DNA of 64,000 nt from Owenia fusiformis. Taxonomy: Eukaryota. The stretch is from positions 1,612,001 to 1,676,000 of the forward strand of contig CAIIXF020000001.1 in NCBI GenBank assembly GCA_903813345.2, read 5' to 3'. Made by a program: the position numbers and the translations under genes. Below the pieces are notes generated by a model. It did not search any database. It had not been told where the DNA came from and was given only the letters and a program-made list of their open reading frames with translations. Of the stretch, positions 3,201-24,895 are shown in pieces (the stretch's first letter is position 1; every line of letters starts with the position of its first letter).

Positions 3201-6200
3201 CCTCACCTAATGCTATATGCAAAGTTGAGAGTCGATGACATCACTTCCTGTGTGAAATTTTAAAAGATGGCAGCTTACTGGAATTGAGCATCACATTTCT
3301 AAGTGATCAAATTTGACCATATCAAAACATTTTTGCGTGTTTTGCTAAACATGGCAAGCATATATATGGTTATAGCTACCATATGAGGAGAGAGATGGTT
3401 TGGCAAGGAATATTCCTTTAAGTATGAACCAATTAAAAACACTGAACTTTCAAACTAATAAAAATCTTAAGAATAAACAAATTAAGAAATATTGAACTTT
3501 ACAATCTTTAGCATTGGTGAGTGCTAATACATGTACAGTAGTTAAATACAGAAAAATATGATGTGCAACCATAGTGCACAAGTACATATTCACTTTAATA
3601 CAAAATAACAAATCAAAACAAAGCATTTATAGCTAAATTATGAGAAATCAAAGAGAAATCAAAGAAAGTCTAGATTTAAATATTTAATTATACCACCGAA
3701 TGAGGTGAGAGGGGGATATAATGAAGCCGTCCATCTGTCCATTTGTCTGTCCATTCGTGTGTCCTTGCGATGGCTCAAATACCAGTTGACGGATTTTATT
3801 CAAATTTTATAAGCTTAGGCCTTATGGGTGTAAAACCTCTGCTCGAGATGGAATTTTCAATATGGCTGCTCAATTCAAAATGGCCATCATTTTCATGAGA
3901 AATTTAAGCTTTGATAATTCATATACTATATTCAAATTTGAAGAATTTTGATCAAACTTTATTTGCTGATTCCTAGGGACATTAAGGAGCTTTGCTTAAG
4001 AATAAATTTTCAAGATGGCCGCAGAACTTCAAAATGGCCACCCTTTTTTGTAAGAAAAATGTAATCTTTGAAACCCAAATACCAGTGGATGGATTTGGTT
4101 CAATTTTCATATGCTGATGCCTAGGTACACAAGAGCTCTGCTCATGAAGACATTTTCAAGATGGCCACTGCATTTGAAAATGGCAGCTATTTTTCATAAA
4201 ATGTAATCTTTGATTACATTGGATCAGAAAATTCAAAATGGCTGCCTAGAGTTGAAATTCTCTATTACTCAGATATCTCTTCATACAAGGCATTAACATG
4301 ACAAAATGTCACCACTTCGTTCCTCAAATCTGAAATCTAAAGTCAGATTTGAAATTCTGAGAACTTGTAGATGGTTTTTAAAAAAAATTGGTCAATATCC
4401 CAGATGAGAGTGGAAATAATCTTGATTTACGTCATTAAAAATTCCGTCAAACTGATGTCATATTTGGAATCTACATGTAAAATTACATTTAGAAATGTGG
4501 TTTTGAAAAGAGTTGATCAACTTTGAATATTTAATTTTCTTTGAAAATGTTACTTCTAGGTCGGGGAGATTCCCCATAGACCCCATTTTGTTGTAAAACC
4601 ACAAAAAGTGAAAAAAAAATTTTCTTGTGTTGGGCAGATAATATTTTCTTTTACTGGACATATTTTAATTTGTATAACTATCAGATACATAAGGGTAATA
4701 TGAAAAGTGAACCACTAAAACTGATCCATATTCAAGTTTAAGGGAATTTTGTAATACCCTGCCATGTTAATTCCCCCGAATCAGCCACCTGGTGACGAAA
4801 CTGGTAACTACCTTCTCGCATCTGAGTAATTAGAAGCAAGTTAAAAAAAGACCTTTTTGACCTTGAGAAGGTCAAATCTAAAGTAAGATTTTAACTTCTG
4901 AAAATTTGTAGATCATTTAGGAAGACATTGTTGGATTATTCCATTGGAGAACTGTTATGGATTATTGAAATGCTTCTTGATCTGTAACCTTGTCAAGGAT
5001 CATCAAGGATATTTATCAACATTGAGAGATCATTGATTGGACATAAGTATGACAACATATTTTATATATCTCATTTAGTTTTTTCAAAATATAGGTACAT
5101 TGTTATATTTTAATTGCTGTTTTTACTTTCCTTTTTCCATTATTATTGAAGGTAACAGAATCTATTGCAATTCTAAACTGAATAATATGTGTATTGTATG
5201 ACCCAGTAGTAACATCTGCATGCAAGCTTTCTTAATTTATGTTTAAATGTCACATTTAACATTTTTCTCCTCTAGTGGATTTCATGATGCATGTCTTTTG
5301 TGAAAATGTTTTAGAACAAACATCACATTTGAAGTTCTTTCCTCAAGTATGAATTCTATAATGTGTGTTAAAGGAAGATTTATGCATAAATGTTTTAGAA
5401 CAAACATCACATTTGAAGTTCTTTTCTCCAGTATGAATTCTATAATGTGAGCTAAGATATGACTTTCTTGAAAATGTTTTAGAACAAACATCACATTTGA
5501 AGTTCTTTTCTCCAGTATGAATTCTATAGTGTAAGTTAAGAGTATCCTTTCGTCTAAATGTTTTAGAACAAACAGCGCATTTGAAGTCCTTTTCTCCGGT
5601 ATGAATTTTATAATGTAAGTTAAGAGATGACTTTTCTGTAAATGTTTTGGAACAATCATCACATTTGAATTTCTTTTCTCCAGTATGAATTCTATAATGT
5701 ATGACGAGAGAAGATTTATGCCTAAAGGTTTTAGAACAAACACCACATTTGAAGTTCTTTTCTCCAGTGTGAATTCTATAATGTCTGCTAAGATGTGACT
5801 TTCTCAAAAATGTTTTAGAACATACATCACATTTAAAGTTCTTTTCTGCAGTATGAATTCTATAATGTTGGTTAAGAATTGGCTTTCTTGAAAATGTTTT
5901 AGAACAAACATCACATTTGAAGTTCCTTTCTCCAGTATGAATTACATAATGAGCGTTAAGAGATGACTTTCTTGAAAATGTTTTAGAACAAACATCACAT
6001 TTGAAGTTCTTTTCTCAAGTATGAATTCTATAATGTTTGTTGAGAGAAGATTTATGCATAAATGTTTTAGAACAAACATCACATTTGAAGTTCTTTTCTC
6101 CAGTATGAATTCTATAATGTGAGCTAAGATTTGACTTCCTTGAAAATGTTTTAGAGCAAACATCACAATTAAAGTTCTTTTCTCCAGTATGAATTCTATA

Positions 6201-9200
6201 ATGTTCGTTAAGCTGTGACTTTCTTGAAAATGTTTTAGAACAAATATCACATTTGAAGTTCTTTTCTCCAGAATGAATTCTATAGTATAAGTTAAGAGAA
6301 GCTTTTTGTGTAAATGTTTTAGAACAAATCTTGCATTTGAAGTTTTTTTCTCCAGTATGGATTCTATAATGTTCCACTAGTACACACTTCCATTTACACA
6401 CTCTATGGCATATATCACAAATATGTGTTCCTTTGTGGCCATTTCCTCGTGCCTTAAGACCAGTAGTAATGATTTTACCACTAGAAGTATCAGCATTCAT
6501 CAAAGAAGTAGAACTATTTGTCATACTTTTGGCAGTATTTATCCCATCAACATTGATTATCACGCCATCAGCATAATTTATTACACTTTTGGGATGATGT
6601 ATCATTACACTAGCATTATTTTTCATAAAACCAGCATCATTTATCACACCATCAGTGTTAGTGACCTTGCTACCATAGTCCATGATGTTTTCCATAGTAA
6701 TGTTGAATTTGCATTAATTAATTCCCTGGTCTTGTGTATGCCTCAGTTCCTGAATAAAGTACATGTATATGCATTTATTCAATGATGGTGAACCTTCTAG
6801 CAATCTCAGATAGTCCCTGATATAAATCCTTTAGTGTTATGCTGTATGGTGTGGATTTCATGTTTCACATTCATGTCACTCTATTATTGGGTTTCTTGTC
6901 CAAAGAGTCATTTTCTGTTCGATTCAAAATAGCATTTTCCGGTCTAATAGAGTCAAATAAACATTGTAGACCTTTCTGTCATGTGTCATACTTTTTTCAG
7001 AATATTTTAGAACAGCATCATTGAATAGTAAATAGCAGTCTTTTCTTGGTCTTATTTGAAACACTTGTTTGGGTCGTATTGTACCACTGTATTATTCTCA
7101 TACACATAATCAATTGTAAGTTTATCTGCTTACAGATTGTCACTGTTACTCTACTTACTATATTTACTCTAGTAGGCTCATGATAAGCTTAGATATAGAT
7201 TGGATAAGTCCAATTTGTTTGGCTGTAATGAAGATTGTACAGCACCATCCAAGTACAACACATTATGTGATTTGATAGGTTATCATGTATATAAACATGG
7301 CTAATGAGGGTCTTTCTAATTCTTTATTATCCCATTGAACAAAGTTGGGTGCTATAGAGAACGGCTCCATATGTATGTCTGTACATCTGTACGTCCTTAC
7401 ATCCATCTGTTTGGGCAATAACTCAACTACCATTGACTCCATATTGTTTATAATTTATATGTCCCATGTGAGTTCAAGCTCTACTCGAAAGCCAATTTTC
7501 AAAACGGCTGCCAGTTGGCCAACATTTCAGTGTCAAGTTTACAGTTTTTAGTGCAACAAATAAAACTGTAATATAGATATATTTTGAGTGAAAAAAATAT
7601 ATAGGATTTTGAACATTTTTATGTGTGCTATTTTAGGTTGTTGCTACAACTGGAAAAGTTTGGACCGATTTTGTTGGAATTTATATGTGAATACTAAGAA
7701 GCATATTAGACTTTCTAATTTCACTTTGGCTGGAAAGCAGCCATTTTGAAAAAAAGATGCCATTTTTATGTTTGTTATTTTACATTTTTTGCTATAACTG
7801 AAAAACAGTGGAGGAAATTTGTTGGAATTTTATATGTGCATATTGCACTGCTGTCTAATGACAATTAGGCTAATTGGCAGCCATTTCCACAAATGGCAGT
7901 CATGGCTGTTTGATAGGATTCACTACGCCTTGGTGTTGCTGTTATCTAGTTAATTTTTTTTTATTTGCAAACCTGGAAAAATTTGGATGTGCCATTTCAT
8001 TTAATAAAATACAATATATTATTAACATAAAGTCTCATGCTGTTTTATTTAAGACCAGGATCCAAAAGCTGCAATTTGAGGAAGACATATTTGTGAATTA
8101 CACAGCATCTTGGCTGAAAACGGTCCAGTGGCTTGTCCAGATCACTTCCCTTATAGCAGATGCATACAGATCAGGTGTGTATTCAGGAAATTAATTCCAA
8201 AATTAAAGATATAATATATTTTCTTGATAAGGATTACCATTTATAATGAATAATTCATAACCTTTGGAAAATTCTACCTCCTCTTAAGGAACTTAAGGAA
8301 TCTTGAAATTAGTCTGGGATTTTTTAAAAGAATTTCTTATTTTTTAGTATAAGACCATCTCTCTTTGAATGAATTTTCAAAGCGTCTACAGTACATGTAT
8401 GTTCAAATAAGTATTAATATTCAAGTGATATATTTCACATGGACATTTAGTTGTTTCAAGACCCTGGACCCCCCCCCCTCTTTCCTCTTTTATCATGTAA
8501 TGTGTTAAAGTAGATAAGAGGGGTCCACAGCCTTGAATCAAGACTAATGAACATTGTATTCAGTAAATCTAGGCTATATCTTCCTCCTTTCAAAGGACAA
8601 GTCTCAGTTCGGAGAACAGTCTCCTGGGCAAAAAATTATTTTTATGAAAATATAGAAATATCACCAAAATTAAATTATGAATATTCAAAAGAGAACATTT
8701 AAATCGATAAGATGTATAAATATCACAATTGCCCTCGGCAGGGATAACTGTGCAATAGACCGATTCAATAGAATACAAGTCTTGATTTGATGAAAAAAGT
8801 TCATCAGTGTACTGCGCTAATAATTTTTTTATGAAAAATCTAGAAATATCACCCAAAGTAAATTATAACTCTATTCAAAAGAAGACATTCAAATCTATAT
8901 TATGTAAAAAAATCAAATTTGTCTGAAGCAGGGATAATGCTCAATGAGACCAATGAACTTCGTTCTCCAAACCGAGAATAGTCCTTTAATGTAACAATGA
9001 CTATCATGATTCCAAAATATTTCCCTTTTAGGCATGGACACCCATGATAGGTTGATGAGCTATGCAGAGTTCTGTGAGAGAGTACAACATGGGGATAAAA
9101 GACACAGGGACAGGAGACCAAGGGAATATCATACTTGGCCAGCTGGTTTCTTTGTAGACTTGTTGTTCAGGTGAGGATCAAAAGTGTTATTTAATCTTAC

Positions 9201-12200
9201 AATTTACACACAGGGTGAAAACATTAAAGGTGCAACAATTAGTGCAGGAGGGCCATTCAACAATCATCGACTAGTGTCAAAATGTATTTAAGTTTGGATA
9301 TTTCATCAAGTCTAACATATATTTTTATTATCTACAAAGAAACCCTCTGGATGAACATTATTTCAGCTGATATTCCTCTTGAAACGTAGTAGATCTGAAA
9401 AATCTATAAGTGGAACACCCTTTATAGAAGCTTTGAACTGAATTCACACTTCTTAATGATAGTTTATACATACATTTCGAGAAAATAGGTATGTCAAAGA
9501 ACACTGGCATGTAGCGGCCCTGATATCGATAAATTCTACACGCAATATAACCCGATTCTAGATGCTTGGTTAAAACTTTACACGAAAAAGCCTCGATATC
9601 CGGGCATTTACTCTTACACTGAACTGAAAATAGCATCATCTAAACGTATATGTGTTGGCTTCCGGGTAAGTTTATCAACATTTATACTCAATTGAAAGAG
9701 CAGTCGTGCTTATATCGTGTACCAGTTTGATTATTTTATATGTGTGTGTATTTATAATATGATAGCCTAGTAATACCGTGTCGTTAGAACAACTGCTAGA
9801 TATCGAACTGATGACCTGAAATTACATTATTGGACTGATCGCGCATCTGATATTAAATGATTAATTTGCATTGAATCTGATATTAACTTGCAACCCAATA
9901 CCATGCCTTTACATTTGAATGATAACACGGCCTAATATTCTAATTCATTATACGTCCATTGCAGGCCAAAAATGTTTCAATGTGGATATTGTAATGCACA
10001 CGAGAATACATTCGATTTGTATATTGATCATACATCAATTGAACATGGAGATTTTCCTGTACACTTTTCCCAAACCTGTGGAATAGACTAGATGCAAGTA
10101 GAAATTATCTTGATTTACGTCATCAAATATTCAAAATTCAGTCAAAGTGATGTCATATTTGAAATCTACATGTATAGATACATCTAAAAATATGGTTTCG
10201 AAAATTGTTTATCAACTTTGAAATCTTTTTTTAGATATTTTTGAAAATAATTAAAAAATGTAAAAAGAAATTTTTTGAAAAAATTCGAAACCATCGAATA
10301 TCACTTTTTATTCCATAGTTAGCATGATATCCATAGGATAACATGTCAAAATAAAAACGGTATTTTTGAAATCAGTGGTAAAATATGATATTTTTGACAA
10401 ATTTTCACTTAAAGTGTGCACCAAAGTTTAATACTGCGCAGGCGCAGCGTTCTCGCTATATAAAGAGATCACCAGGTACACGATTCAGAGGTAAGCAAGG
10501 AAGGCGAACAATCTCCGTCTCGTGATGATTTCCCGTATAATCGTAACCAGGGAAGTTTCACCATTGAAATTGAAAATTACTATTAGATATACTTTGTAGA
10601 TGTTATTTATGAAGCTATTTAGTGTATGTATCAATCAAATGGCTCATTTTGGACATATAAAAAGTATTTGTCTTTTGTTTCCCCGGGAATCGTATTCCCA
10701 TGTAGTACACACATAAATAGTGTACATTATGTAGTACATATTGAATAGCCTGGTATAGTAACACCGTGTTTTTATAATATTGAAGGGCATGCTGATTGTA
10801 CACACGAGTACAAGCATGCTAGAAGGCCTAATTTTATATAGCTTGCATACCTAAATAAAAAATAAACCCTTCTAATCCCCTTATGTAAATACGGCGGTAT
10901 ACGTAGCCAGATTTATCGGAATCTTTAACCATAGCATACGGTGTTTTAGCCATGACATACGGCGCCGTATGCCATGGTTTATGGATTTTTGCTACTTCAG
11001 ACTCAAAACGAGGCTAAGTGACAATATCGCCGTATCGTTTGGAAAATTTGTTTTAAATCACTTAATTCACGATGATTCTGATGATGACTTTAACTATGGA
11101 ATAAAAAGAACATCCTATGATTTACTCGTGATATGATTTTAATCCACTCATGGATGTTGATATCTGCACTCTCTCGCTACGCTCATGCGTGCAGATATCA
11201 TATCCATTTGTGGATAAAAATCATATCACTCATAAATCATAGGATATCCTCTATATATATATTTATCGTCTATTATCCTATGACAAGTAGAGTAGAGAAA
11301 AAATAAAAAAAATTGAAAAATTCAAAAAAGGAAATAAGATTAATTTTTTAGAAAACTACTTGGTATATGATAAAGCAGATATGTGCGGTCAGTTTGGATA
11401 CGGGGTTTATCCCTCGTGAGATATGCACGTCTACGTTCGGTCCCTATGGTCCATCAGGCAGATGGAGATTATCCTATATTCCATACCTGATGAGGTTTCA
11501 GAGACATATCAACCGGGAATATATTCCATATCCGGCAAATATTTTTCGTATGTCCCGCTCCAACGGAGCTCCGGGACATATAAATCGTATGTCCTGCTCA
11601 AAAATAAATTTAAAAATAAATTCGGGAAAAAAATGTGAAAATAAAAATTTGAAAAAAAAATTGTGGAAAAAATTATGTAAAAAAAATTGGGGAAAAAAAA
11701 TTTGAATTCCCAAATTTTTTTTTCATTTTTGAAAAAAAATTGAAAATAAAAAAATTAAAAAAAAATTGTGGAAGAAAATTATGTTAAAAAAATATTGAAA
11801 AAAATTGAAACAAATTTCTTGAAAATATTCTGAAAAAAAATTATGCAAAAAAATGTGAAAAAAAAATTGGAAAAAATGTGAAAAATTTGGGAAAAAATTT
11901 AATTTTTGAAAAAAATTGAAAACAAATTTGGAAAAAATTGAATTTTTTTGAAAATGATAACATATTTTGCAAGTAAACACACCAGATCATATGGGATACA
12001 TGCTTATTATTTCAAACCTCATCAGGTATGGAATACAACAGTTATGCACGGTCGATTTGGATACAGGAAATATACTTGGGATATACAATACATCTTCCCT
12101 TGGTCCCTTCGGTCCCTCGGGAAGATATATTGTATATCCCTCGGGATATTCCCTGTATCCAAAACCTCCCAGTGCATAACCCCTATATATAGTTTAGCAT

Positions 12201-15200
12201 GATATGTACTTCTTTCTGTAACTGGAATACGATTCTAATATACAAGTAACACATACGTATTCCCGGGGAACCATAAATATTTTGTGTAGGGTGTGGACAT
12301 TTTTCTTTTCGTTTCTCTAAAATCAGATTATTCTCATAAAATTCATACAAAGTTGGGCCTAAGCCTCTATTTTCGTATTCTGCATGTTAAGATATTTATA
12401 ATGTAAAACCTAAGAGATAAATTCAATGTCTTCAGTTGAGAATAAGTATAAGGTAAATGTGTGAATTCTGCTTGTTGTTGCACTATTTTTATAATAAACA
12501 AGGTTCGATACGCAACACTGAATAGACTGCAGTCATAGCTTAGTTGTAAAGAAAACAAAAGAAGTTGGGACGTGGTCATGCTTGAATACGATTTTAGATA
12601 TATCGCCGTTTACACTTGTTGAAATCGGCCTGTATTAATTTCAACAGGTGATCGGTGTACAAGGGCATATATTTGAGTTATTGGTTTAATGATAAGTATG
12701 ACCTATGAGTGGGTAATGTTTTACAAATGCATGAAACAAATACTCCAATGGCCTAATCTCAATTTTCCTGCATAAACTATTACATTGAAATGATGGTCAT
12801 TTGCTCTCTAACTTCCGCACTGCATACGTAACTTCGTAACAATTCAATAAGCCAAGACAGGACCGCTATAATCGCTACATGCCAGTGAAAGAAGATGTTA
12901 AGCCAAATTGACCTGATAGCTCAGAAAAAATAAAAATTTTCGACTTTTCTTTCTACAGTCCTTGTTGCCCCTTTAAGGCTGAAACATTAAGGCTGAGAAC
13001 ATTATTGCCACAATTCAGTATATTTGCATTCAGTCAATTTGTCAAACATTATTGCCACAATTTAGTATATTAGCATTCAGTCACTTGTCAAACATTATTG
13101 CCACAATTCAGTATATTGGCATTCAGTCAATTGCCCAATAGGCAACCAGTTTTTCCAAGTTCATTGGTAAGAGTGTAAAGTGATTACCATTGGCAGCCAG
13201 GTTGCCGTGAGTTTTTAACCTTGTTTATATATAAAATAACTACAAACCAGGGGTATAGACAGGAACTAAAATTAGAGGAGGTTAAATTAATTAGTGAGGC
13301 TTAGTGCTAAATGAAGATTATCACTACCTTTGAATTGTTAACACAATTTAAGTTGGAATTCCTGTTAAATTTCTTTAAGATTTTGAGTTAGGTTTCTCAT
13401 CTACATGTACATGTACGACGTAGCTCATGCCTTGCTAGTGGCTACACCCATGTACACTTATCATAGTCCTTTTATGAATGTAGTTTACAGGATAAAATAT
13501 ATTAAGTCATACATTTACTTCATACATTTCTTTTAGAGATAACCATGGTGGTGGTGCTATGATGCAGACTGTGAAGACTGAGCTGGGAATACAAGGGAAA
13601 TATGGCCCTAGAAAGCACCTGCTTGTTATACAGGGACTAGAGGATTACAATAAGGTATATATAGAGTACATATTAATGAATACTAAATAGTTTGTAATTG
13701 ATATAAATCAGTGGTTATGAAATAACTCTAAAAAACTGAATTCACTAGGGCAGAGCATTTGTACTGAAAGGAGCGTTTTCAGTACAAATATGTACTGAAA
13801 AATGTACTAGTTTTGTTTCAGTACAAATTTAAGTATATTTTTGTACTGAAAAATGCACTGAATTTTTTTCAGTATATTTTTCAGTACAAATTCATGTACT
13901 GAAAAATATACTGAATTTTAAGTACAAATTGTATATTTTTCAGTACAAATTGAAGTATAAATATGTACTGAAAAATGTACTGAATTTTAAGGACAAATTT
14001 AAGTGCAAAAATATACTGAAAAATGCACTGAAAATTTAAGGATAAATTTAAGTACAAATATATACTGAAAAATGTACTGAAATTTAAGTGCAAAAGTCAG
14101 TATAAAAATGTACTGAAAAATATACTGAAATTTAAGGATAATTTTAAGTATAAATATATGCAATGAGAAATATTTGTGCCCAATAATGGAAATAAGAGAA
14201 AACGTAAATGTAAGGCATACTTTATAAACTCTAAATCACTCAAAAAGTTCTTCGAATGGTGAAAAAGTGCATGATTTTAAAAGAATTTTTGGCGGGGGGG
14301 GGTTCGCTTGGACCCCTGAAACCCCCCCCCCCCCCCAACAGGAATGCTATTACATTATGAAATTATTTTGGATGCTTCCTTTACAGCATCCTTTATTGTT
14401 GTATTGTATTTTGTTTACCACCAATGAAGGTGAGCAATACCTCTTGGCTATGCCCCGTATATATACGATCGTAATTTACGTAATTAACATGGAAGATAGA
14501 CCCAGAAACCCCTCCTTGAAGGAGCCCTGTGTTCTTTTATGTGCACTTATACATAGACATACAAGTACACACCACAGCCTTTTGTACGAGTTGCGGACCA
14601 CTCAGTCAAACACCCTGAAGTACTTCACGCAAACAAGCAAATTTAGTCTTGCCTGAACCGGGGATCGAATCCGGGACCTATTGCGTAAGAGGTACCTGCG
14701 CTACCGCTGAGCTACACGGGTGGACTTAAAAGAGTCTCTCTGTAATCAGGTTTGTTTTGCCTTGTCAAAATATTTTGTTTTGTTGGTGGATTAATAAAGT
14801 TTCTTTAGACACATCCTTTATAAAAGCAGACTCTAATCAAACTGGAGAGGCTAGGTTTACTGTAATCAAGTGATTTCCTTTTTAGAAGTTATGTTGATGG
14901 ATTTATTAAAAACGGCCTAAATCACTCAAAAAGTTCTTAGAATGGTGAAAAAGTGCATGATTTTAAAATAATTTTTGACCGGGGGGGGGGGGGTTCGCTT
15001 GGACCCCTGAACCCCCCCCCCCCCCCCCCCCCCCCAGGAATGCTATTACATTATGAAATTATTTTGGATGCTTCCTTTACAGCAGCCTTTAACCAAACTT
15101 AAAAGAGTCTCTCTGTTATCAGGTTTGTTCTGCCTTGTCAAAATATTTTGTTTTGTTAATGGATGAATAAAGTTTCTTTAGACACATCCTTTAAAGCAGA

Positions 15201-18200
15201 CTCTAATCAAACTGGAGAGGCTAGGTTTACTGTAATCAAGTGTTTTCCTTTTAATAAGTTATGTTTTTGGATTTAATTATTTAAGACGCATCCTGTATAA
15301 ATTTCTTTTTAGCCCGATCAAACCTATCAAATATAATGCACATATAAGGGTTATGTACTGGGAGGTTTTGGATACCCATATTTCCTGAGGGATAAACCTT
15401 TTATTTAAAACTGATCGTACATAACATGTGTATTCCATACCTTTTGAGGTTTCTAGATACATTCTACCTTATTAAGTTCTAAAATTCAAAAACATTAAAG
15501 GTACATATTTTCTCAGTCTTAAAAATAAGATTTTCATGAGATTTTCACTCATATTGCTTGAGCAAATTAATTAATTGATATCAAAATTAAAATATATAAC
15601 ATGAACATAGAACCTCATTTGTTCGAGTAAAGCAAAATCCATGGTATAGATGTCAAAGTCAGGAAGATGTCGTAATTCAAAATCTAAGTATATTTTTCAG
15701 TATAAATTTACACTTAAATATGCCCTTAAATTTCAGTATATTTTTCAGTACATATTTGCACTTAAAATCACACTTAAATTTCAGTATATTTTTAAGTACA
15801 TATTTGCACTTAAAATCACACTTAAAATTCAGTATATTTATCAGTATAGATACGAGGGGTGATCCAAAAGTCTTGGACGCCCCACTCTAACTTTGCTATT
15901 TTCTAATATAATTACATGAAACTTTCAGATAATAAAGATCAACATCTAAACAACTTTGTGTATAAGTTTCAACAGAAACTAATATATTTTAGCTACTTTT
16001 CTAAATATTTTTTTTTTGATACCGGGTCCCTGCCACCCGGAACGGTATTTAAATATTGCAAATCACGTCACAACTGTTATAATGTGGCAAATACTTTAGG
16101 TGCAGGTGCACAACCTAACACCAGTCATGATATGGGAGAATTTCCAATTTTCAGTCTGAGTGTCATCTGCCATGATCATCTTCACATATTAAGACCTACT
16201 TTTCAACATATTTTCCACGAATTTGAACACATTTTTCATACCGCTTTACCAATGAATGAAAGACATTTATGAAACGGCCATTGCCTTTGTGATACAAATG
16301 CTGCTGGAGTGCCACTCTAAACCTCATCCAATGAGTAAAAAACATTTTCTTTCAACCCTCCTTTCAACTTGGAGAAAAGGAAGAAAATCACACAAAGCCA
16401 TATCTAGACTGTATCGTGCATATAGTAGTTGCTCAATGTCAAATATAGTGAAAATATATTGTAGTATTCTTTGTTCCACTTTGATTTCTTTCATGTTCTG
16501 CATTTCAGCAGCCATCTTGGAGCAAAAATGACACCAGAATGAGGGTTGATTGTCTGATGTCATTTTCTTAGAACTTGACATATACGGCCATTGCCATATG
16601 TGACATTATTATTAAAAAACAATTAATTGGTTGCCTAGTAACAAAGGAAGTAAACTAACATGGTTTAACATTCAAAATTTAAGGAAAGAAAGTGGTCAAG
16701 ACTTGCAAAACAAGTCAAATAGCGGCAACGTTTAAGGCTGAAAGTTGCCATGTGCGAATACCAGTGATCTCCCCAGGATTTTTTCTCAGGTGGGTGCAAA
16801 ATTCTTATTTTTACGATTCAAACCAAAATTGGTCAAAATATGCCAATTTTTCATGATTTTTCTCATTATCAAGTGGGTGCAAATGGATTTTCAGGTGGGT
16901 GCAAGCCTATTTTCAAAATCTCAGGTGGGTGCTGCACCCACTTGCTATAATGCTGGGGAGATCACTGAATACCGTTCCGGTTGGCAGGGTCACTATATAA
17001 ATAACTATCTAGAAAACTACATAAAATATATCAGTTCACCATGAAATTAATACACAATGTAGTTAGGTTGTTGGTCTTTATTATTGGAAACTTTAAAGTG
17101 ATTTTAGCAAAAATCAACAAAATTAGAGCAGGGCGTCCAAGACTTTTGGATCACCCCTCGTATATACTGAAAAATGTACTTTAAATTTCAGTACATTTTT
17201 CAGTACATATTTATACTGAAATTTGCACTGAAATTTTAAGTATATTTTTCAGTACATATTTATACTGAAAAATATACTTAAAAATTCAGTACATTTTTCA
17301 GTACATATTTGTACTGAAAACGCTCCTTTCAGTACAAATGCTCTGCCCTAGTGATTGTACCACACAAAGATTGCTTCTCAGACCCCACATTTTACAATTA
17401 CAATTAACAATTACAATTACAATTTACAATTACAATTACAATTTTTTACAATTCCAAATTTTGTCTGCATCCATCCAAACTTTTCTAAGACTTAATTGTG
17501 ATGGCACTAAGAAGCAAAAGATTTCTAAAATCAACATGTTGGACAAACTAATTAATACACTAGTACTGTAAACATTTAATCAATAGAGAATCTATTCAAG
17601 AATAACAATATTACACATTTTGTAGTTTAACAGTTATGACATATTGCATTTGTAATCATAGCAGATCACTGTACTTGTTGGAATCTGATATAACAACAGA
17701 GGATAAAAGCTTATTGACATGATATACTGTTCAGTATAAATGGTAAAATACAATCTGTGTGCAGCATAACAATCACATTAAAACAGTAACTTAATGCAAA
17801 TGTTGTCCTATAATATAATAAATTATACAAGGAATATTATTTAGGTTAATTTCGATTGCAGTGTCGACAGCGTTACATTGACAAGGCTCTGAGTGATTTC
17901 AGCAACAATAAAGGTGGCAGTGTGGTTGACATCGTGAACGACCAGCTAGGCCCTCTGGTGGCAGATTTGGTGCACTATGATGTGACATCATTTTGGCAGT
18001 TACACATCCAGGTATAGTGAGGAATTTGGGTGATTTACATGTACATAATACATATTTATATTAGATTGTAGTTATGTGTCACCATCATATTGTCATAGCC
18101 ATTGATCTTTTTGGCTACCACTGATGTCCAGCTTTGACATCTGTAACACTTGTTACACATTTGTAATTGTAACCAGGTGGTTTTCTTATTGTCATGTTAG

Positions 18201-21200
18201 TTTTGCCATCCCCAAGAATTGATGACATATTGTTATGACAACTGTGCTCACCTTAACACATGTATCCAAGTGTCGCCATAAATAGGTAGTGACATATTGA
18301 TACAGCCACCATTTTTCATGACTGGCAGTTGGTATCCGTAACAAATTGTTACATCTATGCAACTATTTGTAGTAACTTACTAGATGGTGGTATTGGGTCA
18401 TGTTAATGCCTTGTCACTTATAATGATATTGTTCCCGTTTACTATATGTTAATCCCATGTTATGTCAGCTGCATTATCTCAAATATGTCCATATTACATG
18501 TATCATGTGTTATCATGTATTTCTAGGTTTGTGTTGGTGTTGTTATACAGAGAACTGAGAAACCCCAGGAGGCAACAGACATTCAGGAACAGTTTATGCA
18601 GGGCCCAGGTACAAAACCACCATATCCAAATACCCTTCAATATATATCAAGTGAACCGTAATGTACATTTAGTCAACTTATCTACTTAAGGCTTTCGTGA
18701 TTATTGAATTGAAGACATACAATCAGAGTGATTGGCTGTTATTTTCCTATCCAGTATACAATGTATGTACATCCTATACAATTTAATCTTATGAATTTCC
18801 AGGTGATCATCCTGATGACCATATGCCAAGACAGCAAAACCTTAACAATTATGTAAGACCTCCTCCCACACCCCAGTCCGCTGCCAATAGTACACAGCCT
18901 GTCAAACCTGCCTCAAGGCACAAGTCTCCAACTCTCCCAACCCAAGCCCCACAAGTGCACACTCTACCCTCCACATCTAATGCCACCATTACAACTGCTG
19001 ATATAGGACAAATACAAGGTGTCCAAGAATCCCTTAACAATACAGTTGAAATACAGGGTGGTCAAGAATCTCAAGATGATGATCTTAGAAAAGCTATAGA
19101 ATTAAGCTTAAGACAAAGCCAAAATAGTTGTAATGTTAGAGCAGATGGACTAGGTCCAGTATCTTCCAATAGTGCCAATAAGTATAGTGCAAATGCATCA
19201 GAAGCAAAAGGTGCAACAGATGAAGGTCAACTCTCTGAAGAGGAACAGTTAAAAAGGGTTTTAGAATTAAGTAGGATTGAAACCGCAATGAACAGTGATC
19301 TAGTCAATGACTCTGATTATGCCTCTAAACTTGACAGAGGTCATGTAACCAATGCAAAAGCTATATATAAAGATGAGGCAAGACCAACACCATGCAAAAC
19401 ATTAGACAGAAATGAAAACCATGTGCCATATAGAGGAACAACATATTACACTGATGAAGTCCTTATTAGTAAAGCACCAGGTGCAAGAACTACAACTAAA
19501 CCAACAGCCGTTGATGAAGAGGAGGAGGAGATATTCAGAAGAGCTTTAGAATCTCTTGATAAACCAAAGATCAAGGAAGAACCAGTTGAGACCACCACTA
19601 CTGCAGAACCAATAGGAGCCAATAATGATGTTGAGTTTAAGAAGGCTCTTGAAGTAAGTCTTTTGGAAAGTCAAATTAAAAATGAGCCAATAGATTCAAG
19701 TGAGCAGTCTTGTCATCCTGTCAGACCACAGCAAAGACTTTCAAACATTGTTCATAACAGAATGGACATTACAAGCGATCATTTGAAAAGTAATCCTTCT
19801 GCAAGCAATGTCCATGTTATTAAAGAAGAAAAGATGGATAATGCCCACCCTGAGGATGATGATCTGAAAAAGGCTTTACAATTGAGTCTTATTGAAAGCC
19901 AGTTTGAGAAAGATCCAATTATAGCTCAACAATATTCGCCAGTTTGTTCCTCAATAGACACTAGGTCAGGTGACAGCTATGAGCCAATACTGAACAAGGA
20001 ATTATTCTCAATATCTGATGATCCAAATGTACAACATGACTTAGAGAAAAGTTTTCATGAAGATGAAAACAAAGTTGCCAAAAAAGGAGGAAACTCTAAG
20101 AAAAGACCTAGTCCAGATAGTGAACCACATGCCCCAACTAAAATCCAGAAACTGTATGATACACCAATTCAGAATCTAAGTGAAGAGGAACAGTTCAGAC
20201 TTGCCATGGAGGAAAGTATGAAAGAACCAGTGCCAAAAACTCAACTATATAAATCTGATATCCATGCTCCACCAAATGCCCCGAAATCAAGAGCTCAAGG
20301 TGTTCTGTCAGATGAGGAATATGCGAGAAAGCTGCAAGAAGAGCTTAACCAAACATCACCAAACAATAATGCTGATAAAGATGCAATCCTAGCTAGAAGA
20401 CTAAGTCTCAGCCAAGACCCAGTACAATATAAGCAATACATAGAAGATGCTAAGCTTGCTGTGAAACTAGAGGCAGGTGATATAGATATAATAGATGTAC
20501 CTGTTGATACCTTTGGGCCCCCAGGGGCTAGGGCTTTCAGTACACCATCTAAAGCCACATCTAGAAGGAAGGCAACAGTCATGAAACAGCCATCCAGAAC
20601 TGCATTAGGGAGCCCTATTGTGCATGTACCAGATACAGACAGCCAGGTAAGTATTCCATTGTACTCATGTTAGCATCAAGTCAAGTGTGTACTCGTCAGG
20701 TGTACCTGTATTTATTCTGCTTCATTCAAATATTACTATTTTTGGCGAAAGGAGTCTGCAAAGGTGCCCCAAAAGCAGTGAATGAAGAAATATAATCGGA
20801 TTAGCTAATTAAGCAAATCCACCTAATTAAGCTAATTAGGCAACTTTAATTAGCCTATAATAGCTTATTCCTTAAAGTAAGTCATATAAATGGTAAATTC
20901 TTAACATACTTACATAAATTGCTGATCAGTTGTTATTTCATACTAAACCTAATGAGGTGATAGGGGCTGGGTAGGTGGGTTTTTGCAATGCAGCTGACTG
21001 TTTGCTGGCTCTAGCTAGTCTAACTGAAGTTCTAACATAATTCAGTGCCTCTGTTCTGATGCCTTCATCACAAATTACCTATAAATCTACATTTTGGCTT
21101 CTAATTGGTATACTGCAAGAACATTCAAGCATGTATAAACTCTGCATATTGTAAGCTTAATTAACTAAAGGTCAGCATGGGGAAATAAAACTTAAAGGAC

Positions 21201-24200
21201 CTGTCCAACCTTATATGCCACCCTAAGCAAAACAAGCTTAAGCTTTACGGCACCAATTTCAAACACCTTTTCAATGCTTCCTTTTCAATTATTTCATAAT
21301 TTTCATGTGCAGATGCTAATAGAATAATTTGCTGTGAAGCATGATGTACTGAAAGCGTAAACCTTAATATTGATTTACAGTCAGGTTATAACAAGATAAA
21401 GTCTAATATTTTCAGTTAGCAGAATACAGACGCTTGCAGCAGATGAAACACAGTGGGAAGACTGCCAACATTTCTGGCCATCCCAGTCCTCGTAGTCCAC
21501 ATGTAAATGGGCCACATACACCTAAGGGGGCAAAATCTGTACCGACTGCTACATATACTCCTATGTCTAAGCAGGTTAGCTCCTCGTCTACCTCGACATA
21601 CATCCCTACGGCTGATAGGTCCATAAAACAACATGGCCGTATTCAACCTGGAACCCCTAACTTAGCCAAGCAATTGACAGGTTTGTGAATTGTTTGGAAA
21701 TATCTATGAGTTTTGAGGTAGAAGAGGGAACTCCCTCACCAAAACTTTACATATTTTGACTTGTCTCAACTATTATGTCACCACTATTATGTCACCACTA
21801 TGAAATGATGACATATTGTCATACCATACTTTTTTATCAAATCGTTACACTTTTGTAAACATTTACAGCTGAAGACATCATGTCATGTGTACTCATAGTG
21901 TCAATTTGCCTCACCTATTTTGGGATTCTGGCAATGCCCCTTGTGTCTTGATAAAGTAAAACAACAGAAATGAAAAATTGATTTATTAAATGTACATTGA
22001 AGTACTTGATGATGAAAAGGCCTTACAATTGCAACTTACAAATACATGTACCTTACAAATGCAACTATTCGTGCAGAAATTGTCTGGGATGATTTCTTTT
22101 CTTACAAAACTCAATATTACAATCAGTTTATTTATGACTGATGTTTACTTTTGTAGCAAAGGTACTCTATTGTCTGGTTAATTAAATTTTAATCTACATG
22201 GTATTTAAAAGAAACAATTTAATTTAAGATTCATGACTTATTTTATGAGCAGCATTACAGGAAATTGATATTGCATTTTTATGTTTAGAAAAGGAAATAA
22301 TCAATTAGAAAGTTGTTACTGTACAAATTGTTCAATTTAGTTGAACATGATATTTATACACTGATTAATTGCATACAAAGTGCAGAACTTTTATTATTCA
22401 ATTTATTTTTTATAAATCAATTTTTCAAGTTTGACCCACTTGTGTTTATAAAGTGTGTCTCAAATAAACTTTATGATTCAATCCCAGTGATTCAATTAGA
22501 TATCTCAAGATATATCCCCCTCCCCCTTCTCACCTTAATGAGCTATACTTCAGTTTTCATGTAATTTATAGGTGTGGTCCCACAAGCTGTAGTCAGTCCA
22601 AGAGTGCACTCCAACCCTGCTGTAACCCACAGGCCAGCCAGCCATACTCAACATGTAGCAGACCAACATATTGTGCACCCATTTAATAACACTCCCATCA
22701 TACCAAACCCTGACCTAACCCTGACCAATAATCCACTATCAAGCAAACATGATACAATTACGAAGGAGTTTCCTAATCCAAAATTAGCTTCTGGGGTCAA
22801 TCAAGGAACAGTGGCTCAGGTTCATGGAGAGAACACAGACCAAGGTTTTGCATCATCTCCATGCAAATATCAAGCAGAGGTTAAAGGTCATCAGGGGGTC
22901 AAGGTCAAAGATGAAGTTGTCATTATAGATAGTGATAGTGATGATGACCTACCACCAAGTGGAGTTGTGAAGCCAGGCAGCTTCAATCCTAAAGTGGGTA
23001 CAAAACAAGGTACGCTTTAAACGATTTATTTTCTCATAAGCTTCTAATGTATATTCATGTTATTTCTCATTGAATCATTTAATTTTCAATTAAAATTATT
23101 TCTTTTTGTTATTTAATTAATTGATTTGACTTTCATTTTTCATATTGCTTGCACCTTTGCATTTTGAATGTTGAGAAATCCAAAATATGTAAATGAAATG
23201 TCAGTTTTTTGTGATAATTTGTTTTGAGCTTGGAAGATGTTTTTTCTCCTAACCATTGATGTATCTCAGGTGGCACATTCACACATGGAGCAGAGCCACA
23301 CCAGTCCAACATCAAGTGTGGCAACTGTGGCAGACTGGGACACACAAGGACATCCAGTAGATGTCCTCATTACTACTCACAAGAAGAACATGATCGCAGA
23401 GAGGTGAGATATCCATAATTGCATAAAGGGCCACTGTAAAACCCATGTAACTGAAATGCCCTTGGTTCCACTAAAATGTGATCTACTTACGAGGGTAGAA
23501 TGACATTAAGTCAACTTTGGAGTGGTTCACTTATATTATACTGTAAGTTATAGAGGTTTGATTAACAACAGAAAATATGTTCACATGGTAACAAATCAGT
23601 TGATGAAGCATGCATTGGAACAATGTATAATAATATATTACAGTGTGGACACTATCAAACAGTATTGTCTAATCACAAGCAATGATACCTGGATAAAATC
23701 CTCACGCGGTCCTAACTTCGACCGTTAATTTGAATTTTTGACCTACCAGATGCTCGAAAATCAGGGATTGCGAGTTTCATACTGCACCGTTTTTCTTCAA
23801 ACTTATACCATTAAAAGCAAAACAAAATTGCCTTTCTGTCGGTGCATTACTTTATTGTAAAGAGTCCCTCGTTCTAGCAGCGTTTTGGTCCCCGGCTGTT
23901 AGAAGGCCTTCTTACACCTGGGGACCAAAATGCCGATGGAAGGGACTCTGTTTAGGAGAATAATGTACCAACAGAAATGGATTTTTGTTATGCTTTGAAT
24001 GGAACAAGTTTGAAGAAAAACGGTGCAGTATGAGACTCATAATCCTTGATTTTCAAACATCCGGTAGGCCAAAATTTCAAATTAACAGTCGAAGTTAACA
24101 CCGCGTGATCCTGCACATTCTATTTCCTATGCAATTTTGCTAAATAATTGATTCTTATTGTGTTTTCAATAGGCCAAGAAAGCTAAAGCAAGAGAGAAGA

Positions 24201-24895
24201 GAGAAGCTGCAGAGAGGGAAGATCAGCGCCTCCTTGATAATCTTGTAAGCAACACATATGACACATATGAAATATATTCACAAGTCTCTGGTTTTCTGTT
24301 AGATTGAAATTAGTAGAGGATGTGAATCTGTAAGGGGGAGACACCGAGGAGTATTTCAAAACAAGAAACGATTAGTCATAAAAAAGCGAACCTCTATTAT
24401 CCAAACTATGATCTTATGTAAAAAGAAACAATGTTAACCACAAAACCACCCCCCCCCCCGCCCCTTTCCACCATACATCATTCATAAATTAATTTCATAA
24501 TGAAGGTGGTACTCCTATATATCAATAATAACAATGCAGAAGCTTTTCTCGTCAGACCAAATACACAGCAACATGAGTTTGCTTGAATAAATTATTGACA
24601 ATGATACATCATCCATATACCAAACTTACCCTACTCCTACAGAACTACTGTAGTGTTTTCAAAATTACTCTGAACTTTTATTTTCTGTTTCCAGCAACGT
24701 AAGCATGATCGAACGCAGGAGTTGATTGAACAGCAGGAGAGAGAGAAACGCCTTAAACAACAACAAGCGCTGAATGCTGTGAATGCAGTCTTTGAAACTC
24801 AGATTGAGCCAGTCGTCGCTCAGAATCAGGAATACGAGGCAATGATCGCAGCCTTGGAGAACAAGCAGAGAAAGAATGCCCGAAAGAAAAAATAA
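271..24895 (+). CDS. XPF/MUS81-family structure-specific endonuclease-like protein (winged-helix end, active ERCC4, EME1-like inactive ERCC4, UIM/MIU/SIM tail, CCHC knuckle, coiled coil); 5' end lies outside the window
   Basis: Exons with AG/GT ends and consistent phases: 271-384, 817-1009, 2284-2376, 2699-2791, 8054-8174, 9032-9170, 13537-13654, 17862-18011, 18527-18608, 18803-20646, 21416-21680, 22572-23009, 23270-23403, 24173-24244, 24695-24895 (TAA). The spliced translation contains YALTVSGRHLAEK (MUS81 winged-helix-like), LVIDSQE...LPAGDYVW...IVERKSWDDL...RFDKQIVKMQRCGLKNIFYLLEG (ERCC4 GD/ERKxxxD signature) and CGNCGRLGHTRTSSRCPHY. Confidence 0.85.
1028..1887. mobile_element. Foldback MITE, CAC termini with 5-bp TSD (Transib-like signature)
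   Basis: Runs CACCCTTGGTATACG...CGTATACCAAGGGTG, with near-perfect arms 1028-1432 and 1511-1887. TGTAT flanks both sides. A central 37-bp unit is duplicated (1433-1469, 1470-1506). Confidence 0.85.
2816..3417. mobile_element. Kolobok-like palindromic MITE (TTAA TSD)
   Basis: TTAA|AGGAATATTCCTTG ... CAAGGAATATTCCT|TTAA with long diverged inverted arms. Confidence 0.8.
3688..4920. mobile_element. Fragments of Helentron-associated (HINE/DINE-like) repeats
   Basis: TTATACC start, (gtcc)-type microsatellite at about 3728-3755 and repeated CAAAATGGC units. From about 4286, acaaggcattaacatg..atgtcaccac and satellite units shared with the element at 54580-56197. Confidence 0.55.
5255..6695 (-). pseudogene. 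Tandem C2H2 zinc-finger array (13 fingers plus a degenerate one), nested antisense in an intron; interrupted by two in-frame TGA
   Basis: One frame from 6695 gives repeated FKCDVCSKTFxxKSxLxxHYRIHTGEKN units (84-bp period). The linker GGA is TGA at 6015-6017 and 5343-5345. There is an in-frame stop 7 codons upstream of the ATG and a frameshifted final finger. Confidence 0.8.
7323..7950 (+). mobile_element. HINE/Helitron-like non-autonomous repeat
   Basis: Starts TTTATTATCCCAT and ends TTATCTAGT. Alignable by eye to 47657-48480. Confidence 0.55.
8594..8985. mobile_element. Degenerate Kolobok-like MITE with internal ~185-bp duplication
   Basis: AGGACAAGTCTCAGTTCGGAGAAC is inverted to GTTCTCCAAACCGAGAATAGTCCT|TTAA; the left flank is TCAA. 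Confidence 0.55.
11104..11252. mobile_element. Short palindromic MITE (possibly Crypton-type)
   Basis: ATCCTATGATTTA..GTGATATGATTTT..ATCCAC arms are inverted around a central CTCGCTACGCTC. Confidence 0.55.
11362..12188. mobile_element. Non-autonomous element with internal inverted repeats and A-rich core
   Basis: ATTCCATACCTGATGAGGTTT (about 11478) is inverted at about 12014. Terminal hairpin at about 12058-12152 and poly-A-rich 11600-11950. Its right end recurs inverted at about 15343. Confidence 0.5.
12998..13133. repeat. 47-bp tandem repeat, ~3 copies
   Basis: AACATTATTGCCACAATTCAGTATATT(T/A/G)GCATTCAGTCA... starting at 12998, 13045 and 13092. Confidence 0.85.
14396..14725 (-). mobile_element. 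tRNA-derived SINE
   Basis: Minus-strand head with A box TAGCTCAGCGG and B box GATTCGATCCC. The body GGCTGTGGTGTGTAC..TAAGTGCACATAAAAGAAC resembles conserved SINE central domains. (ACAAT)n-like tail. Confidence 0.8.
15853..17160. mobile_element. Tc1/mariner non-autonomous element nested in the CACTA element
   Basis: TA|CGAGGGGTGATCCAAAAGTCTTGGACGCCC...GGGCGTCCAAGACTTTTGGATCACCCCTCG|TA, a 30-bp perfect TIR. Confidence 0.9.
16762..16967. mobile_element. hAT-like MITE nested in the mariner element
   Basis: CAGTGATCTCCCCAG...CTGGGGAGATCACTG with flanking direct repeat AATAC. Confidence 0.8.
17391..17453. repeat. (TACAAT)n microsatellite
   Basis: tttacaattacaattaacaattacaattac... Confidence 0.85.
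23703..24107. mobile_element. Palindromic MITE, CAC termini with 5-bp TSD (Transib-like signature)
   Basis: ATCCT|CACGCGGT...ACCGCGTG|ATCCT with long diverged inverted arms. Confidence 0.8.

Follow-up and report, generated by a model that had tools for sequence, protein, structure and literature searches.

In the reading that we favor with moderate confidence, the exon at positions 18803..20646 of the window (the 64-kb stretch of Owenia fusiformis DNA analyzed here) encodes the reader tail of an ancient MUS81 paralogue, which is likely self-targeting and probably a single-chain structure-specific DNA nuclease. Judged by its sequence, the Owenia protein (1747 aa, of which the window codes for residues 397-1747) is a separate, ancient paralogue and not canonical MUS81. 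From its N-terminus, the chain consists of a ubiquitin-like domain, a helical domain, a B-box, a MUS81-type winged helix, and an ERCC4 nuclease, followed by a second compact domain, an 860-aa tail with UIM, MIU, and SIM-like motifs, a TAF1-type zinc knuckle, and a charged helix. We infer ubiquitin binding by the tail and nuclease activity of the core. As the usual DNA-gripping tail is missing, a dead nuclease copy is predicted, and the ubiquitin motifs are conserved in the animal relatives, the protein is likely to locate damaged DNA that carries ubiquitin marks and to cut it unaided.

In the papers cited here, eukaryotic ERCC4 nucleases are described as heterodimers that hold on to DNA through (HhH)2 domains; in humans, it is SLX4 that directs them to damage. 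The Owenia-type family appears to depart from all three rules, and its active site is still kept from annelids to glaucophytes. If our reading is true, it represents a one-chain structure-specific nuclease with ubiquitin targeting built in, a way for an ERCC4 enzyme to work without (HhH)2, and an additional way of repair for numerous marine invertebrates and protists. Several family members are labelled plain "MUS81" in databases, which can mislead inventories of meiosis and repair genes. The 764-aa core is predicted to be compact and should be expressible and assayable.

Gene structure and predicted core domains

The gene (271..24895, plus strand) has 15 coding exons within the window, namely 271-384, 817-1009, 2284-2376, 2699-2791, 8054-8174, 9032-9170, 13537-13654, 17862-18011, 18527-18608, 18803-20646, 21416-21680, 22572-23009, 23270-23403, 24173-24244, and 24695-24895, and at least nine further exons upstream of the window that reach 44 kb away (tblastn). 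AG/GT is found at every site of the 15 exons, which form a single 1351-aa open frame identical in sequence to the public gene model P0001. RNA reads show a spliced plus-strand transcript that includes the exon 10/11 junction. Over the exon with the UIM/MIU array, which is 1844 bases long and sets the motifs in a linker of low conservation, two runs give a sense-strand RNA depth of 0.6-6.4. Contig runs X1 and X2 extend over introns, too, and were regarded as DNA-like; among the indexed runs that contain this stretch, none is registered as RNA. The junctions 18011/18527 and 18608/18803 were not seen in RNA, whose depth is low (at exon 9, 3 in each run). The missing 18608/18803 junction would fit a gene-model artefact, in which the tail is part of a neighboring gene wrongly joined to the core, and the relatives are mostly gene models, too. 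We nevertheless regard such an artefact as extremely improbable: the AG/GT sites are clean and in phase, no other start or stop lies between core and tail, exons 8-11 are covered by RNA of the same strand, and the order core-tail-knuckle recurs in 14 of the 16 proteins inspected, which represent several phyla and include a transcriptome-derived one.

A structural model of the core (764 aa) predicts a compact fold (pLDDT 86, pTM 0.81). Its N-terminus consists of a ubiquitin fold (Z about 11 upon structure comparison of the model), which is kept across the family, and a helical domain (residues 79-204), where the Pfam scan gave no HhH match; in canonical MUS81, SLX4 is bound through an N-terminal HhH. 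The ESM Atlas gave no usable match for residues 79-204 or 1-764. The winged helix (residues 315-417, with its C-terminal end at 272..334, plus strand) matches that of MUS81 (2mc3) with Z 10.8 and rmsd 3.1 over 95 aligned residues (VIA-align) and, as in canonical MUS81, precedes the nuclease. The ERCC4 nuclease domain (824..9096, plus strand; residues 437-622, exons 2-6) is recognized by Pfam with an E-value of 4.8e-24, and its model aligns with human MUS81 at Z 20 (rmsd 2.1-2.6, 164-177 aligned, 26-28% identity).

The catalytic motif of XPF/MUS81 nucleases reads GD-x(n)-ERK-x3-D. On the plus strand of the Owenia gene, the motif corresponds to G475-D476 (about 938-943), E505-R-K507 (about 2302-2310), and D511 (D510/D511 at about 2317-2322), preceded by D447/E450 (about 854-865). 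The motif, which in human MUS81 includes D339 (PMC3834828), is intact in Owenia, and among aligned family members ERK is kept in 13/13 and GD in 12/13. A profile of the (HhH)2 domain built from 40 non-family C-termini found 76 of 83 held-out non-family proteins but, at E<1, not one of the 29 family members, and HhH is also absent from the Pfam scan of the Owenia protein. Both (HhH)2 domains of MUS81-EME1 are essential to bind junctions (PMC3834828), and a family protein without them may thus not cut the same substrates. Their absence would also suit a protein that reads ubiquitin as a scaffold, or senses DNA structure, and hardly cuts or does not cut at all, comparable to FANCM-FAAP24, an ERCC4 pair without activity (PMC3834828). 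The preservation of GD, ERK, and the following Asp from annelid to glaucophyte argues against such a scaffold, which we consider very unlikely.

Behind the nuclease, modeling predicts another domain of the ERCC4 fold (9121..18607, plus strand; residues about 631-760, exons 6-9), which is EME1-like in being truncated and catalytically dead. It is folded in the Owenia core model (pLDDT >80) and does not contain the catalytic motif. When the model of its Lingula counterpart was compared with 48,161 chains, all top 10 were ERCC4-family members (Z 8.6-5.6); these Z values are middling, as the best unrelated row scored 5.4. Among nuclease partners, the scores were 7.9 for EME1, 6.5 for ERCC1, 6.2 for EME2, and 6.1 for FAAP24. 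The matches span only the C-terminal two thirds of the fold (MUS81 327-421, EME1 308-445, Hef 42-134). Foldseek returned no match at E<=0.001, with Exo1/FEN1 as top rows, and ranked Hef and EME2 highest in probability (0.93-0.95) and TM (0.51). Sequence-profile likeness to MUS81-type ERCC4 is undetectable, with hhalign against MUS81-type or family ERCC4 domains giving 2.4% versus 1.5% for the reversed control and hence no signal. The predicted domain resembles EME1/EME2, ERCC1, and FAAP24 in that its model aligns to their nuclease-like domains and the catalytic motif is absent, but it differs from them in sharing a chain with the active domain and in lacking the N-terminal third of the fold as well as (HhH)2.

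Predicted ubiquitin and SUMO motifs in the tail

All motifs listed in the initial annotation, which had described the tail as a dense ubiquitin- and SUMO-reading platform, were recovered at most one base off, either in one open frame of 18803-20646 or in 22572-23009. The Pfam scan it had proposed bears out the UIMs, since PF02809 passes its curated cut-off (E 3.3e-10, 39.5 bits versus a cut-off of 21, four stretches); UIM_2 matches three stretches. All on the plus strand, UIM 1 (19075..19119, residue 855) is found by both Pfam and pattern, and UIM 2 (19237..19281, residue 909) has Val at the usual Ala position. A weak UIM at residue 1004 with a psiKxE site behind it at 19570 (19522..19557) and UIM 3 at residue 1039, directly followed by the psiKxE site IKNE at 19675 (19627..19686), were recognized by sequence and lie outside the patterns used. 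The psiKxE site IKEE (19819) precedes UIM 4, which starts at 19855 (residue 1115; 19819..19899 in total) and is the best Pfam stretch, and UIM 5 lies at 20182..20226 (residue 1224).

MIUs are helices of the consensus D-x-x-hydrophobic-A-x-x-L. Three MIU-like helices (20308..20472, plus strand) start at 20308, 20380, and 20446 (residues 1266, 1290, and 1312), with centers 23 and 22 residues apart, and no Pfam model matched them in Owenia. The third helix includes a further psiKxE site (VKLE, 20461) that was absent from the original list. Two residues past this helix follows the first SIM-like motif (20479..20499, plus strand), which is statistically weak, and the psiKxE site VKDE (22904) overlaps the second (22913), which has an acidic tail (22904..22948, plus strand). 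A similarly placed psiKxE-SIM-acidic stretch in Lingula lends some help to this second motif.

Chance occurrence was assessed with 5000 shuffles of the 856-aa Owenia tail. The UIM pattern was observed four times (0.004 expected), the MIU pattern four times (0.06 expected), the psiKxE pattern five times (0.71 expected, P 0.0004), and the SIM pattern three times (0.98 expected, P 0.08), one of the three falling within a UIM. These P values are optimistic because the patterns were composed once the motifs were known. The SIM claim is the weakest versus chance among the motif classes. Of the SUMO reading put forward initially, the psiKxE sites stand above the shuffles, the SIMs less clearly so, and taken together the case for SUMO is less strong and more scattered than that for ubiquitin.

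The comparison drawn with RAP80 does not hold for the spacing. The key alanines of the RAP80 UIMs are 25 residues apart and serve as a K63 ruler (PMC12118340), whereas the Owenia UIM centers are 55, 95, 34, 76, and 110 residues apart, which makes flexible avid binding more likely than linkage reading. What is shared with RAP80 and USP25, neither of which is a nuclease, is the occurrence of UIMs and SIM-like motifs within one region. In USP25, SUMO acceptor sites adjoin the UIMs (PMC3646854), as do the psiKxE motifs in Owenia. In tandem SIM-UBD receptors of hybrid chains, the SIM adjoins a ubiquitin-binding motif (PMC3646854); unlike in RAP80 and USP25, the Owenia SIM-like motifs adjoin MIU-like helices or the knuckle instead of a UIM pair.

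Relatives of the Owenia protein

The core is common to relatives in a brachiopod, molluscs, amphioxus, hemichordates, a malawimonad, a glaucophyte, and a dictyostelid. In a midpoint-rooted tree without outgroup, all 17 sampled family ERCC4 domains form one clade (SH-like 0.977), separate from 59 other matches. The Owenia genome holds a canonical MUS81 locus on another contig (C8), the CCD of SLX4 on contig C2, and genes for EME1 and XPF at other loci as well. A core fused to damage-mark targeting had been proposed, and the ERCC4 core and the ubiquitin-motif array indeed share a chain as a trait of the family, but the protein is not MUS81 plus an added tail. It is like MUS81 in the winged helix followed by an ERCC4 nuclease with the GD...ERK...D motif and unlike it in its own clade, the lack of a C-terminal (HhH)2, the extra ubiquitin-like, helical, and B-box domains, the predicted in-chain second ERCC4 fold, the reader tail, the zinc knuckle, and the likely coiled coil. 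Judged by titles and abstract openings, none of the open-access papers listed describes the family.

Owenia and Lingula share 40% identity in the core (849 columns), and their tail matches are weak and centered on the motifs. With the 614-aa exon as query among longer proteins, only its own protein was recovered. Checking motif conservation against the linkers, as had been proposed, showed that the linkers diverge, that all 13 named animal tails have at least three MIU-like helices (3-8 copies of the pattern at P<=0.001; 14/18 tails overall, with some matches overlapping UIM-like helices), and that the array begins with a UIM and finishes with an MIU in all 10 animal tails that have both classes. 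Of 21 family proteins submitted to the Pfam scan, 8 have UIM above cut-off, and at least two UIMs occur in 11/18 tails; UIM patterns are missing in 5/18 (both Haliotis, Batillaria, Cyanophora, and one more). Enrichment at an uncorrected P<0.05 was observed for SIMs in 7/18 tails, with some matches inside UIMs, and for psiKxE in 5/18. Weak matches to CCDC50_N (Pfam) occur in two relatives. Non-animal tails carry other readers, such as PBZ in Gefionella (E 2.8e-4, just below cut-off) and RanBP/NZF fingers plus RING in two further records. The Synstelium member (888 aa) stops shortly past the second ERCC4-fold domain, its gene model having neither reader tail nor knuckle, and a search starting from it recovered only its neighbor.

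The tail could also be mainly a switch, where the UIMs drive coupled mono-ubiquitination or fold back onto the protein's own ubiquitin-like domain or SUMO sites to turn the nuclease off, with a partner, for example EME1 or SLX4, targeting DNA; the genome has genes for both. UIM/MIU proteins commonly undergo coupled mono-ubiquitination (PMC7226360), and SUMOylation between the UIMs inhibits USP25 (PMC3646854), which gives weight to the psiKxE sites next to the Owenia UIMs. We hold this to be unlikely, as avid recruitment accounts better for up to 8-9 candidate binding helices and for the PBZ/NZF modules of particular lineages, and as (HhH)2 for pairing with EME1 is absent.

Downstream of the array, a short helix, Q-L-x-x-[YIV]-R-x-x-Q (20644..21442, plus strand), bridges the exon 10/11 junction and is found in 10 named animal proteins (16 proteins examined). 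It may loosely resemble p97-binding motifs, a likeness that counts towards a Rad23/Ddi1-type shuttle. In such a shuttle, the ubiquitin-like domain and the UIM/MIU array would bind K48-type chains attached to stalled machines or to DNA-protein crosslinks, and pass these on to p97/proteasome, with the nuclease trimming the leftover DNA. The family-wide N-terminal ubiquitin fold and the MIU-like helices, which are the best-kept reader, are in line with it, the MIU of MINDY-1 being K48-selective (PMC12118340). However, the ubiquitin-like domain is continuous with the helical domain in a core of pTM 0.81 and may therefore be structural. The shuttle is a possibility of rather low probability and narrows rather than opposes the self-targeting nuclease.

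The knuckle, a TAF1-type CCHC (23317..23364, plus strand; C1629-C1644), is matched by Pfam zf-CCHC_6 (E 1e-9), and its C, C, G, H, and C are invariant in 18/18 alignment rows. It shares this match and the spacing Cx2Cx4Hx6C with TAF1, whose knuckle binds DNA (PMC5854669); unlike in TAF1, the Owenia knuckle sits in a nuclease, and DNA binding is putative. A charged helix, by sequence a likely coiled coil, extends to the stop codon (23365..24895, plus strand); 14 of the 16 proteins inspected have such a helix behind the knuckle.

Proposed mode of action

As a self-targeting nuclease, the protein would capture polyubiquitin by avidity, through numerous helices that each bind ubiquitin weakly and are strung along flexible linkers. 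The polyubiquitin would mark chromatin or DNA blocked by protein, and SUMO would be a secondary cue, although UIMs have proteasomal and trafficking roles, too (PMC7226360). The dead second domain may pack against the active ERCC4 domain and replace EME1, the winged helix and the knuckle may hold DNA in place of two (HhH)2 domains, and the ERCC4 site would then nick branched DNA close to the marked protein. The tail would do in cis what SLX4 does for targeting. That human MUS81 is targeted via the UBZ and SIMs of SLX4, as previously stated, agrees with PMC7610648, and by the same paper SLX4 resembles the Owenia protein in its ubiquitin/SUMO-binding motifs (here predicted), its long flexible chain, and an ERCC4 nuclease as target. 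SLX4's own features are UBZ fingers, action in trans, and BTB, SAP, and CCD domains; UBZ, BTB, SAP, and CCD gave no match in the Pfam scan of Owenia P0001.

This binding might be tuned by SUMOylation, at psiKxE sites next to UIMs, and by phosphorylation, at acidic SQ sites. Plain SQ/TQ enrichment is weak (P<=0.05 for SQ in 5/16 and for TQ in 1/16), and the acidic [DE]SQ form, which was chosen after looking, is enriched at P<0.05 in 9/16.

Core architecture and separateness from MUS81

In the AlphaFold2 model of residues 1–764 of P0001, a public 1747-aa Owenia fusiformis protein (pLDDT 86, pTM 0.81), a predicted ubiquitin fold at residues 1–78 (Z about 11, rmsd 1.6–1.8) is followed by matches to the MUS81 winged helix at residues 315–417 (Z 10.8) and to the MUS81 nuclease at residues 437–622 (Z 20, rmsd 2.1–2.6). 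Pfam additionally places a sub-threshold B-box at residues 259–303 and a TAF1-type zinc knuckle at residues 1627–1649. Residues 79–204, which are encoded by exons upstream of the window, form a well-predicted helical domain that is conserved across the family and matches nothing in Pfam or the Atlas. The catalytic motif is intact, with ERK in all 13 aligned family members and GD in 12 of the 13, and an inactive scaffold appears very unlikely.

PMC3834828 describes the winged helix of MUS81 and reports its (HhH)2 to be essential. The (HhH)2 profile matches none of the 29 family proteins versus 76 of 83 held-out non-family hits. The same genome encodes XPF (contig C1), EME1 (C9), SLX4 (C2), and also a canonical MUS81 at a separate locus (C8); reading the protein as MUS81 plus a tail is not supported. 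From sequence and modeling, our verdict is that the protein would act in the manner of a MUS81-type nuclease, yet it does not pass the tests of canonical MUS81 membership. A third MUS81-like gene (C5:14250192–14253320), in which the end of a winged helix precedes the start of an ERCC4 domain with GD and ERK, differs from both the canonical MUS81 and the gene under study.

The core has relatives in Lingula, many molluscs, Branchiostoma, Ptychodera, Saccoglossus, Gefionella (malawimonad), Cyanophora (glaucophyte), and Synstelium (dictyostelid). The 30 proteins looked up, from the best 150 of 1190 hits, included no named members from vertebrates, arthropods, nematodes, fungi, or land plants. In a FastTree phylogeny with midpoint root and without outgroup (161 columns), the 17 family ERCC4 domains form one clade (SH-like 0.977) next to 59 others, for which every second one of the remaining hits was sampled (135 usable hits in all); protein P0008 dropped out. 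No published description of the family was found among the open-access papers listed, and the accessible portions of PMC5201022 and PMC3424549 give no account of it.

ERCC4 nucleases are described as heterodimers in PMC3057012. In P0001, a compact domain 2 (about residues 631–760) lies after the ERCC4 nuclease. When the model of its Lingula counterpart (pLDDT 92) was compared with 48,161 chains, the ten best matches were all ERCC4-family domains (Hef with Z 8.6, EME1 7.9, MUS81 7.2, and the tenth 5.6, the first unrelated chain following at 5.4), and the alignment covers the C-terminal two thirds of the ERCC4 fold only. Foldseek returned no match for domain 2 at E<=0.001, and hhalign gave 2.4% versus 1.5% in a reversed control. 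On the basis of the model comparison, we read domain 2 as a putative truncated, dead, EME1-like domain.

Ubiquitin and SUMO motifs of the tail

All motifs listed in the initial annotation were found, in frame and at most one base from the positions given there, and the Pfam scan it proposed returned a UIM match in the 614-codon exon (18803–20646) with four stretches (E 3.3e-10, 39.5 bits versus a cut-off of 21). In 5000 shuffles of the tail, the UIM pattern (4 observed vs 0.004 expected) and the MIU pattern (4 vs 0.06) were strongly enriched, followed by psiKxE (5 vs 0.71) and the SIM pattern (3 vs 0.98, P 0.08). Because these patterns were devised after the motifs had been seen, the ubiquitin side of the proposed ubiquitin/SUMO platform can be called solid and psiKxE fair, while the SIMs are statistically weak. 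UIM roles are covered in PMC7226360, and the psiKxE sites beside UIMs in the Owenia tail resemble the arrangement in USP25 (PMC3646854). That the tail is regulatory is rather unlikely in our view, and a proteolysis-coupled shuttle is a somewhat better, still doubtful, alternative.

In RAP80, alanines 25 residues apart act as a ruler (PMC12118340), whereas the Owenia UIMs are 34–110 residues apart, and the strict form of the RAP80 comparison was therefore dropped. Three MIU-like helices spaced by 22–23 residues and directly followed by a SIM-like motif are, by sequence, a more promising candidate for a unit with selectivity for linkage or hybrid chains.

The cores of Owenia and Lingula are 40% identical, and their tails match weakly, around the motifs. 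At least one UIM- or MIU-pattern hit occurs in 18/18 tails, and 14 of these, including all 13 named animal tails, have three to eight MIU-like helices. At least two UIM-pattern hits were found in 11/18 tails, and of 21 proteins scanned with Pfam, 8 scored above the UIM cut-off. UIM patterns are missing from 5/18 tails. In 10/10 animal tails having both classes, a UIM comes first in the array and a MIU last, and a knuckle plus charged helix closes 14 of 16 proteins. Uncorrected enrichment (P<0.05) was seen for SIMs in 7/18 tails and for psiKxE in 5/18. Lineage-specific internal duplications cover the ubiquitin-like and helical domains in the Batillaria protein P0159 and the MIU-knuckle region in the Ostrea protein P0006.

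The tail of Gefionella has a PBZ finger just under the cut-off (E 2.8e-4), and two further members carry RING and RanBP/NZF fingers; PBZ is a reader of poly(ADP-ribose) and NZF of ubiquitin. The Synstelium protein model has no such reader tail. The tail is a family trait as judged from these sequences, and the strongest indirect argument that it may read damage marks is that reader types are swapped while the nuclease core stays fixed. The 2150-aa P0068 has a core of family type and, after it, domains resembling OB folds and a macro domain, possibly a combination of DNA and ADP-ribose readers.

SLX4 provides targeting through UBZ/SIM (PMC7610648), and the TAF1 knuckle binds DNA (PMC5854669). 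The reading we favor, with moderate confidence, is that avid ubiquitin binding by the tail would recruit the nuclease in cis, domain 2 would take the place of EME1, the winged helix and knuckle would hold DNA, and branched DNA would be nicked close to marked proteins. The earlier interpretation thereby finds partial support and is extended: the core and ubiquitin-motif tail in one chain are kept, and the identity with MUS81 and the strict RAP80 analogy are discarded.

Gene model, transcription, and neighboring features

The 15 exons from 271 to 24895 have AG/GT at all sites and form a single 1351-aa frame that is identical to residues 397–1747 of P0001; an artefact of the gene model is extremely improbable. 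As at least nine more exons lie upstream, the gene spans ~69 kb. Two raw RNA-seq runs from a single study (6% and 12% of reads, mapped to 17800–21750 only) gave 67 and 66 reads, with a sense-strand depth of 0.6–6.4 on the large exon versus 0–0.16 in the intron at 18064–18459. Four and one reads support junction 20646/21416, and there are loose read ends that match exon 7 at its end (4 and 5 reads) and exon 12 at its start (4 reads). Junctions 18011/18527 and 18608/18803 are not among the RNA junctions listed, and one read extends into the intron at exon 9; since the depth of exon 9 (3 per run) equals the listing threshold, the RNA neither supports nor refutes 18608/18803, the junction that the initial annotation had named as its test. 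A repeat at 20704–21360, in the intron that follows the large exon, shows high contig depth and RNA reads from both strands.

Further introns hold MITE-like elements with long inverted arms at 1028–1887 and 23702–24108 (arms 83–98% for the two) and at 15847–17166 (78–81%), and in the intron after exon 7 about 300 bases are locally duplicated, with poly-G/poly-C tracts (14228–14930 and 14930–15260). Antisense within the intron that separates exons 4 and 5, a long C2H2 zinc-finger array of HTGEKNFKCDVC repeats (5282–6713, minus strand) is divided into frames at about 6014 and is apparently broken close to its end. The ORF sequences at 26254–29466 and beyond, on the minus strand, are exons of a convergent neighboring gene, presumably an SLCO/OATP organic anion transporter.
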